Shown in pieces: positions 14,185 to 14,268 of a DNA stretch of 47,466 nt; position 1 is the first letter of the stretch; every line of letters starts with the position of its first letter. The stretch spans positions 1-47,466 of the forward strand of contig CAZMPQ010000002.1 of NCBI GenBank assembly GCA_964568535.1, read 5' to 3'. The notes beneath the pieces are model-generated. The model did no database searches and was not told where the DNA came from. It worked only from the letters and a program-made list of their open reading frames with translations. The DNA comes from an uncultured Candidatus Saccharibacteria bacterium (GTDB lineage: Bacteria > Patescibacteriota > Minisyncoccia > UBA6257 > 2-01-FULL-56-20). A program made the translations under genes and the position numbers.

Positions 14185-14268
14185 GTATCAAGTATCATGT
14201 ATCAAGTGTCAGGATGTAGGAATGACAGTTCGTACGTTTCTTGACACCTGATACCTGACACGTGACAC
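14185..14268 (+). repeat. heptad-periodic inverted repeat, site C
   Basis: GTATCAA GTATCAT GTATCAA GTGTCAG (14185-14212) ... TTGACAC CTGATAC CTGACAC GTGACAC (14241-14268). Ends 7 nt before the secY ATG. Confidence 0.9.

Follow-up and report, generated by a model that had tools for sequence, protein, structure and literature searches.

The stretch of DNA considered here, the 47,466 nt of contig CAZMPQ010000002.1 analysed over their full length (hereafter the window), carries tandem arrays of a heptanucleotide unit, YTGAYAC, at five junctions between co-directional genes: rpsL/rpsG, rplV/rpsC, rplO/secY, lysS and a cytidylyltransferase-like gene, and rsmH and a following open reading frame (ORF), ORF106. 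All five arrays lie on the same strand as the flanking genes and end 0-10 nt before the next ATG, and at three of the junctions they form the right arm of a two-arm element, whose left arm is an inverted (GTATCAR)n array that overlaps the upstream TAG stop codon or begins 0-1 nt past it (Table 1). The presence of the arrays, the inverted arms and the proximity to the downstream ATG had been pointed out in a first-pass annotation of the sequence, and all three were recovered as described. Tandem Repeats Finder (TRF) reports period-7 arrays with 3.1-4.4 copies at all of these sites, and a three-unit pattern (TGAYACNTGAYACNTGAYAC) has 13 matches in the window against 0.00 expected, with none in any of 100 dinucleotide-preserving shuffles. 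The loops of the three two-arm elements (GAAGAATAC, GATGTAGGAATGACAGTTCGTACGTTTC and GTTGCGCAATGCGCATGATTATATCTC) are unrelated to one another, and the order and number of the units also differ between the sites. Among heptamer repeats the YTGAYAC unit is new. The names of the flanking genes are borne out for nine proteins by Pfam matches (S12, S7, L22, S3, L15, SecY, LysRS, CTP_transf_like and RsmH); the label ftsL, which had been applied to ORF106, is positional only, being derived from the gene order mraZ-rsmH-ORF106-penicillin-binding protein transpeptidase-Mur ligase.

Table 1. Heptad arrays and other start-proximal repeats of the window (TRF, limits of the period-7 array given by Tandem Repeats Finder; MFE, minimum free energy)
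Element	Positions	Strand	TRF	Units and context
rpsL/rpsG, left arm	533-560	+	533-560	(AGTATCA)x4; period 7, 4.0 copies; overlaps rpsL TAG (532-534); pairs with 571-598
rpsL/rpsG, right arm	571-598	+	572-598	TTGACAC then (CTGACAC)x3; 100% matches; rpsG ATG at 599 directly adjoins (0 nt)
rplV/rpsC, single arm	8716-8743	+	8717-8743	TTGACAC TTGATAC CTGACAC CTGATAC; 4 nt past TAA, 10 nt to ATG
rplO/secY, left arm	14185-14211	+	14185-14211	GTATCAA GTATCAT GTATCAA GTGTCAG; begins 1 nt past TAG stop
rplO/secY, loop or spacer	14212-14240	+		small internal stem; unrelated to the loops of the other copies
rplO/secY, right arm	14241-14268	+	14242-14268	TTGACAC CTGATAC CTGACAC GTGACAC; secY ATG at 14276, 7 nt downstream
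lysS/cytidylyltransferase-like, left arm	21235-21265	+	21235-21265	(AGTATCA)x4.4; overlaps lysS TAG stop
lysS/cytidylyltransferase-like, right arm	21290-21311	+	21290-21311	CTGACAC GTGACAC CTGACAC; ATG at 21318, 6 nt downstream
rsmH/ORF106, single arm	39497-39525	+	39497-39525	CTGACAC GTGACAC TTGATAC CTGACAC; 5 nt past TAG, 6 nt to ATG
Variant heptad hairpin at rsmH	38553-38612	+		(TGAAACA/TGAAGCA)n...(GTTTCAR)x4; opposite arm order; MFE -25.2, z -5.12
Period-~8 family, before rplX	10812-10917			inverted ACGAAT arm upstream
Period-~8 family, before first adk	16150-16215			true start 16216, not the long TTG ORF at 15832
Period-~8 family, before rplJ	33460-33517			rplJ start 33518
Period-~8 family, remnant	4946-5006			after rpsJ terminator

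The window was compared with 80 loci from relatives (L121-L200) with SecY proteins that are 61-77% identical, the whole set including the window amounting to 923 kb. Many of these loci stem from 0.1 µm groundwater filtrates. In the window there is no rpmD gene (for L30) between rpsE and rplO, which are separated by a 4-nt gap (13283-14183), and the absence of L30 is a hallmark of the Patescibacteria or Candidate Phyla Radiation (CPR). Together with the origin of the relatives from such filtrates this suggests a placement of the lineage within the Patescibacteria/CPR, and the host is probably an ultra-small groundwater bacterium.

The TGAYAC unit occurs at the rplO/secY junction in none of the 80 relative loci. 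In about 30 of 74 relatives this gap is occupied by another short-period inverted repeat spanning the interval from stop to ATG, which is built from unit pairs such as TAGTCGA/CTAGTCA, ACGAATA/ATTCGTT, AATGCGA/ATTCGCG, TAGAATC/CTAGATT and AAATAGC/GCTATAT, while others possess only 1-20 nt at this junction. Even within clusters of at least 88% SecY identity the elements still differ or are absent. Thus, the units turn over rapidly, and the arrays are not kept at orthologous junctions, a point on which the first-pass annotation had looked to relatives for an answer: at rplO/secY these carry unrelated units or none. Period 7 prevails among the tandem repeats of the whole set: the 923 kb contain 97 tandem arrays of period 7 against 15-23 each for periods 6, 8, 9 and 10, and 73 of the 97 are intergenic in sequence that is approximately 86% coding and 14% non-coding. 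The units vary within individual genomes and some are reused, for instance AAACGAA at four sites in L184; L159 contains 13 arrays, including ones of CTTGACA and CAAGTAT, and carries the hairpin family of the window at rplN/rplX and the variant found at rsmH (see below) at rplV/rpsC. Where the ATG of a long ORF lies downstream in one orientation, the array ends at -2 to +10 nt from it in 31 of 47 cases, and a second cluster of array ends at 37-57 nt corresponds to left arms.

Junction boundaries from rplC to secY were in addition defined by homology. Spacers of at least 35 nt are found at every one of these junctions in 9-47% of the relatives, most often at rplO/secY (47%) and least often at rpmC/rpsQ (9%). 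Among 210 distinct spacers of 35-200 nt, 72 have their strongest autocorrelation at a lag of 7, and 133 (63%) fold with z below -2 relative to mononucleotide shuffles. Their stems begin at a median of 3 nt past the stop codon and end at a median of 8 nt before the ATG; hairpin spacers with a median length of 107 nt have an effective single-stranded gap of 11 nt (interquartile range 7-15), as compared to 5 nt (interquartile range 2-10) at element-free junctions. Among the long spacers, those without a fold are the shorter ones (median 55 nt, as opposed to 107 nt in those that fold).

The start regions on which these spacers abut have a distinctive character of their own. Shine-Dalgarno (SD)-like tetramers (GGAG, GAGG or AGGA between positions -18 and -4) precede only 2 of 37 starts in the window, as against 12% of random 15-mers. 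In 691 starts from the ribosomal clusters of the 80 relatives such tetramers are present at 6% of short-gap and 0.9% of long-gap starts; G accounts for 3-9% of positions -12 to -1, A reaches a frequency of 0.66 at -6 and 0.65 at -3, and C or T is favoured at -1. The lineage thus initiates translation without SD, with a Kozak-like start signature. This signature resembles the Kozak-like, SD-independent one of the Bacteroidota, the likeness comprising the avoidance of SD, the A-rich and G-poor starts (with A at -3 and -6) and operon junctions mostly of a few nucleotides; the comparison is with modes of initiation and of short-gap reinitiation coupling, and not with a family of repeats. G is likewise scarce in start-proximal arrays, at 9% as compared with 21% in upstream 30-mers taken as controls, and the arrays fold less than these controls. 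The proposal in the first-pass annotation that the arrays replace the SD region therefore does not hold, because SD is avoided at essentially all genes of the window and of the 80 relatives and there is nothing to replace; its observation that no GGAGG lies between array and ATG is true without being specific to the sites with arrays. Neither the window nor the loci compared with it contain an rRNA gene; the diversity of units among relatives would argue against a common pairing partner in the 16S rRNA.

The predicted folding of the arrays differs between the two architectures. The single arms at rplV/rpsC (MFE -3.3, z +1.19) and rsmH/ORF106 (MFE -0.9, z +1.15) are predicted to be essentially unstructured, with even less structure than shuffled controls, and the right arms alone have a mean MFE of -0.5. 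The two-arm elements form long stems with approximately one mismatch per heptad, which are pronounced at rpsL/rpsG (MFE -19.7, z -3.09) and rplO/secY (MFE -36.2, z -4.43) and weak in the sense strand of the lysS junction (z -1.12). As had been remarked in the first-pass annotation, the arm mismatches are mostly A·C on the mRNA, which become G·U on the opposite strand, and the free energies agree with this: the mRNA sense strand and its reverse complement have MFEs of -18.5 and -31.4 kcal/mol at rpsL/rpsG, -35.1 and -38.5 kcal/mol at rplO/secY, and -20.8 and -39.4 kcal/mol at the lysS junction. The asymmetry extends to the entire lineage. Among the 210 spacers of the relatives, 101 fold more weakly in sense than as the reverse complement and 25 the other way round, with a mean difference of 3.7 kcal/mol (Wilcoxon p=5e-13), and G·U accounts for 5.9% of the pairs in sense and 10.5% in antisense. 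In the window and L159, A·C is found at 13 of 18 R/Y positions. At the R/Y position of paired heptads no covariation was detected, the counts (G-C 21, A·C 16, A-U 6, G·U 6) being near independence. The sense strand of the spacers consists of 37% A, 18% C, 15.5% G and 29% T, and the enrichment in A+C extends over the whole spacer and is not confined to one arm. A G-poor right arm opposed to a G-rich left arm was considered as the source of the orientation bias and rejected, the arms not differing at paired positions in 133 hairpins (p=0.68). Such a systematic weakening by A·C argues against selection for a stable stem in the mRNA.

The composition and folding of the spacers match the start-region signature of the lineage. 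Spacers are kept A+C-rich, G-poor and weakly folded, and the long ones mostly fold; therefore we tentatively favour a reading, quite possible though short of probable, in which the arrays are heptanucleotide simple-sequence repeats that persist mainly as tolerated filler shaped by translational constraints, and not as a dedicated regulatory site. A conserved sequence-specific operator is argued against by the turnover of the units, the moderate occupancy of every junction and the lack of covariation. With respect to mechanism, we infer that slippage on 7-nt units, along with palindrome formation or copying, generates the arrays, which would accumulate in the few-nucleotide junctions of co-transcribed genes, often as two inverted arms, and would persist because initiation or re-initiation without SD can proceed at the start codon that follows them. 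A single arm would then provide a leader that is rich in A+C, poor in G and practically free of secondary structure, whereas a two-arm element would fold out as an imperfect hairpin, leaving approximately 11 single-stranded nucleotides between stop and start. A ribosome terminating at the stop codon might melt the base of the stem and thereby expose the AUG, with selection keeping the mRNA-sense stem weak by means of A·C mismatches. The arrays might at most modulate translational coupling, and it is plausible, though unproven, that they act as coupling hairpins; the proposed bridging of a long spacer by a hairpin, which would keep the effective gap short, sets this apart from short-gap reinitiation coupling.

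The distribution of the unit beyond this lineage bears directly on this reading. A four-unit TGAYAC pattern was searched over 596 Gb of sequence, in which about 0.07 chance matches are expected by our calculation, and was found in at least 120 stretches from about 13 phyla, as judged by record titles. Among the matches listed, to which the counts that follow also refer, the Chloroflexota (~28), Bacteroidota (~25) and Acidobacteriota (~14) are most prominent, with 6 from the Patescibacteria and others from the Planctomycetota, PVC groups, Desulfobacterota, Proteobacteria, Actinomycetota, Gemmatimonadota, Cyanobacteria, Firmicutes and Armatimonadota. In the TGAYAC sense, 30 of 109 arrays have, within 30 nt, the ATG start of an ORF that is at least 100 aa long; the corresponding figures are 5 of 109 in the antisense and 58 of 600 at random. 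Eighteen arrays end at most 12 nt from the start, and 16 of these also have a co-directional ORF ending at most 200 nt upstream; in organisms that use SD the array lies just 5' of the SD in 9 of 31 cases. Where an inverted partner is present, the order GTRTCA...TGAYAC outnumbers the reverse by 15 to 1.

Several of these observations weigh against the arrays being mere filler. Pure slippage predicts no preferred sequence, and the recurrence of one unit across phyla with a bias in orientation and in arm order is contrary to that expectation. Similarly, within this genome the YTGAYAC unit is reused at five or six sites, which hints at a trans-acting factor or at copy-and-paste spread. Nine pairs of near-identical loci (99.1-100% identity over ~75 kb) contain zero indels, and pairs of intermediate divergence are absent from the set, so that slippage was not caught in progress, which is in itself uninformative. 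The z-scores of the spacers derive from mononucleotide shuffles, which is to be counted on the same side, and the stop-to-start geometry is also expected from simple insertion into an ancestral junction of ~5 nt, leaving coupling not proven. Given the cross-phylum recurrence of YTGAYAC in a fixed orientation and its reuse within the genome, a model with a trans-acting factor stays alive.

One such model, which we consider unlikely, takes the array to be a periodic binding site on the mRNA. A factor that binds single strands over ~7 nt (for instance a cold-shock-domain protein, S1 or a HutP-like oligomer) would recruit or block ribosomes at the start codon next to it, and the array would work as an operator, as a standby site or as an enhancer that is independent of SD. 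This would account for arrays of one unit being kept across phyla facing starts, just 5' of the SD in SD-using organisms and adjoining the ATG in the 18 cases mentioned above, as well as for the use of one unit at five sites of this genome and for the predicted lack of structure of the single arms, which would leave them accessible; a similar proposal has been made for the TAACTGA repeats (PMC4679880). However, close relatives have unrelated units at the same junctions and several units per genome, which makes a conserved binder of fixed specificity unlikely in this lineage and weakens the protein- or RNA-binding array envisaged in the first-pass annotation; furthermore, at three of the five sites a hairpin takes up part of the arm that would be bound, and no candidate factor was identified. 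A more far-reaching version, distinctly doubtful in our estimation, regards (YUGAYAC)n as a conserved cross-phylum cis-element of mRNA leaders, which is read by a universal translation component that binds ~7 nt of single-stranded RNA and which acts as an SD-independent standby site or enhancer, with the inverted arm forming, in the present SD-free lineage, a ribosome-gated hairpin. The candidate readers would be S1, cold-shock OB folds or the 30S platform itself, and, if true, the inverted arm would let terminating ribosomes re-initiate across a long spacer in a bacterial form of 'shunt'. Alternatively, the two-arm elements might be intercistronic hairpins for mRNA processing or stability, that is, barriers to 3'-exonucleases or RNase III sites that set the levels of individual cistrons. 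REP, ERIC and Correia elements act in mRNA stability, 63% of the long spacers are significant hairpins directly after stop codons, and the junction most often occupied (47%), rplO/secY, is one where the needed protein amounts change. Yet the sense stems are systematically weaker than the antisense ones, the opposite of what is expected of a protective stem, and therefore argue against a protective or processing hairpin; in addition, RNase III would find no long perfect duplex, as mismatches recur every 6-7 bp, the second arm is absent at two of five sites, and junctions between proteins needed in equal amounts (rpsL/rpsG and rplV/rpsC) are occupied too. On this balance a processing function appears rather improbable.

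It is also conceivable, though unlikely, that the arrays are small non-autonomous mobile elements, akin to miniature inverted-repeat transposable elements (MITEs) or REP elements, which insert into the stop-to-start interval and serve no purpose for the host. In relatives, other palindromic spacers do behave in a copy-and-paste manner (near-identical elements of ~125 nt at two junctions in L125, and likewise in L169), families with terminal inverted repeats (CCCGTTAGAA...TTCTAACGGG and CCCTCAC...GTGAGGG) adjoin the ATG in several genomes, and the heptad hairpin occupies different junctions in the window and in L159. The copies in the window, on the other hand, have only the arms in common and differ in their loops and in the order and number of their units; the five sites show no target-site duplication, single-arm arrays are not palindromic, and, among the minority of ORFs scanned with Pfam, the one inserted ORF that was checked (5007-5432, minus strand) gave no match of any kind and hence no transposase. 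Finally, the 7-nt period would allow the arrays to act as self-phased sigma70 promoters of the form TTGAYA-N17-GAYACT (3x7-4=17) that give rise to leaderless or nearly leaderless transcripts. The best case is secY, where TTGACA (14241-14246)-N17-GACACT-N6-ATG would put the predicted start of transcription at the A of this ATG, and the ending of arrays 0-10 nt before ATGs would fit this. Nevertheless, in a scan for paired -35 and -10 hexamers with at least 9 of 12 matches and with A2 and T6 in the -10, none of the arrays at the three sites below 20 kb passes, that of secY having GACACT as its -10, whereas canonical sites do exist elsewhere, at 54-83 before rpsL, 3182-3211 before tuf (TTGACA-18-TATAAT) and 5426-5454 before rplC. 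The geometry also fails at rpsG, with its ATG right next to the array, and at the lysS junction, where a -35 unit is missing; array-to-ATG distances range widely over 0-10 nt with no phase-locking, and units of relatives such as AAACCCT and AAATCCT resemble neither a -35 nor a -10. A promoter function is thus highly improbable, and the view taken in the first-pass annotation that the arrays are not classical promoters, terminators or CRISPR arrays is upheld on all three counts: no array below 20 kb appears among the terminator-like sites and no T-run follows any right arm, and the units are 7 nt long and contiguous, whereas CRISPR repeats measure 23-50 nt and alternate with unique spacers about as long. 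Rfam models at their gathering thresholds recovered only five tRNAs in the window and no match to an array. A three-frame stop trap was likewise entertained, with a TGA in every unit of the window, three units sufficing to put a stop in each frame, and the trap present in sense at 5 of 5 and in antisense at 0 of 5 sites of the window; it was dropped as a general rule because the relatives show no orientation specificity (17 against 15 of 31).

Heptanucleotide repeats as such have a considerable history. A heptanucleotide repeat of Calothrix PCC7601, of the cyanobacterial STRR type, was reportedly described by Mazel in 1990. According to Mrazek (2007), as cited in two later papers (PMC4679880, PMC4692102), units of seven nucleotides outnumber all other kinds of long simple-sequence repeat in many or most genomes, and polymerase slippage with a 7-nt footprint is proposed as their origin. 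The nearest comparison is provided by the TAACTGA repeats, which occur in marine Beggiatoaceae and in certain Cyanobacteria and Bacteroidetes (MacGregor 2015, PMC4679880); one Beggiatoaceae genome contains 169 sets of them, mostly in forward orientation, the largest class ending 1 nt before a start; they mostly lack a ribosome-binding site, their RNA is predicted to be unstructured, several lie in ribosomal-protein operons, and binding by S1, Csp or CsrA has been proposed (PMC4679880). In Nostoc, GAC(C/T)AAT arrays overlap start codons or lie within 30 nt of them (preprint 10.1101/2022.06.06.494920), and Xanthomonas and Nostoc possess G-rich heptamers, GGGAATC and GGGGA(T/C)T, some of them as inverted repeats (Rehm 2015, PMC4692102).

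The arrays of the window are closest to the TAACTGA repeats: both consist of tandem 7-nt units (2-6 copies in TAACTGA), are intergenic and forward, end a few nucleotides before a start, lack a ribosome-binding site, are predicted to be unstructured when the array stands alone, occur in ribosomal-protein operons and have a stop triplet in each unit. When read in tandem, TAACTGA is (CTGATAA)n, a single base away from the (CTGATAC)n found here. Nevertheless, the unit here is YTGAYAC and not TAACTGA, making the two relatives in kind and not the same repeat. An inverted partner arm is present at three of five sites here against one case among 170 TAACTGA sets in BOGUAY, and the host here is a probable CPR bacterium, with YTGAYAC occurring in about 13 phyla as opposed to the narrow distribution of TAACTGA. 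With heptanucleotide repeats in general and STRR the arrays share the over-representation of period 7, the intergenic location, including within operons, the occasional inversion, and the turnover of length and sequence between close relatives; in contrast, the Xanthomonas, Nostoc and STRR units are G-rich and G-quadruplex-capable or otherwise different, the sense strand here being A+C-rich and G-poor, and neither a lineage-wide stop-to-start hairpin geometry nor a strand-biased weakening of stems has been reported for them. The class of repeat has therefore been described before, in the heptanucleotide repeats, STRR and TAACTGA, but no known function comes with it. The alternative comparison made in the first-pass annotation, with REP/BIME-like elements, holds for the architecture: like REP/BIME, ERIC and Correia elements, these are imperfect palindromes at transcribed co-directional junctions that can fold in the mRNA, and palindromes of the REP/BIME kind (~20-40 nt, between or after genes) are present at three of the five sites, the other two having no second arm. 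It does not extend to a shared loop or a full-length consensus. Whereas those families have such a consensus in many copies, and REP a RAYT transposase, only the 7-nt arm unit is common here, the arms are internally tandem-repetitive, and the sense stems are weakened and not maintained. By the same token, copies that share heptad arms alone are not MITEs in the usual sense. Literature searches recovered no description of such elements in Patescibacteria, and the literal unit strings matched only unrelated primers; the stop-to-start layout with inverted arms appears to be undescribed before.

A variant of the heptad hairpin with the opposite arm order covers the start codon of rsmH (38560) and extends over the first 17 codons of this gene, the Pfam MraW domain beginning only at residue 18. 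As the corresponding unit pair is purely intergenic in L159, this suggests that a spacer element was absorbed into the coding region or that the start is non-canonical. A second repeat family of the window, with a period of ~8, ends at start codons with a common tail (ATTCGTATATTCGGGAWYACTCYC-ATG; Table 1), and several relatives have ATTCGC/ATTCGT units before secY whose tail, ...ATTACTC(C), is similar. Single units of the window's heptad family that might be a seed or relic were observed in otherwise short junctions of relatives, namely before secY in L126 (1189 upstream; TAA-gGTATCAttgaaagacatcc-ATG) and at rplN/rplX in L156 (TAA-cCTGACACatgaaa-ATG). The MITE-like palindromic spacers of relatives are near-identical elements of ~95-126 nt at two junctions of one genome, which in both L125 and L169 are rplV/rpsC and rpsN/rpsH, and the terminal-inverted-repeat families end exactly at the ATG at several junctions (the loci concerned being L125, L169, L162/L169, L146/L148, L139, L144, L147, L159, L161, L167 and L183).

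Outside cellular genomes, the four-unit TGAYAC array was found in 28 stretches of viral contigs (IMG/VR, L201-L228), giant-virus metagenome-assembled genomes included. Very long arrays, with 17-21 units of TGATACC or TTGATAC, occur in Roseivirga and Xenorhabdus hominickii, and mosaics of related heptads (CTAACAC, CCAACAC, CTGAAAC and CTGACGC) in other genomes (long arrays and mosaics together: L007, L113, L120, L019, L092 and L098); these resemble the long TAACTGA arrays of some Bacteroidetes and Cyanobacteria. Two further features of the window concern its gene order. The rpsJ and rplC genes are separated by ~630-670 nt (4897-5527, the start of rplC being uncertain), in which a terminator-like hairpin (4900-4935), the 141-aa minus-strand ORF mentioned above and the canonical promoter before rplC are accompanied by a flanking direct repeat, aaaaacgtcgcccgccgg(g)tcgcg, at ~5015-5040 and 5403-5425; the S10 operon looks to have been split here by an insertion. 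Between secY and the methionine aminopeptidase gene lie tandem adenylate kinase paralogues (16216-16800 and 16800-17393), both of which match Pfam ADK.

Cyanobacteria, Beggiatoaceae and Xanthomonas were already known to possess heptamer repeats next to their start codons, which have never been explained. To these the present case adds a unit that occurs in about 13 phyla with a bias toward downstream starts, an entire lineage whose junction spacers consist of short-period inverted arms running from stop to start, and a strand signature, A·C in place of G·U, that points to selection on the mRNA against stable stems. A lesson for annotation is that start codons and calls of a 'missing' ribosome-binding site in such genomes are unsuited to SD-based models. 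Several cultured species carry the same arrays, among them Xenorhabdus hominickii DSM 17903, Neolewinella persica DSM 23188, Saprospira grandis DSM 2844 and Streptomyces sp. NPDC057445, making experiments possible. The picture that emerges is a concrete and testable one, of polycistronic translation that tolerates or exploits long spacers without SD.

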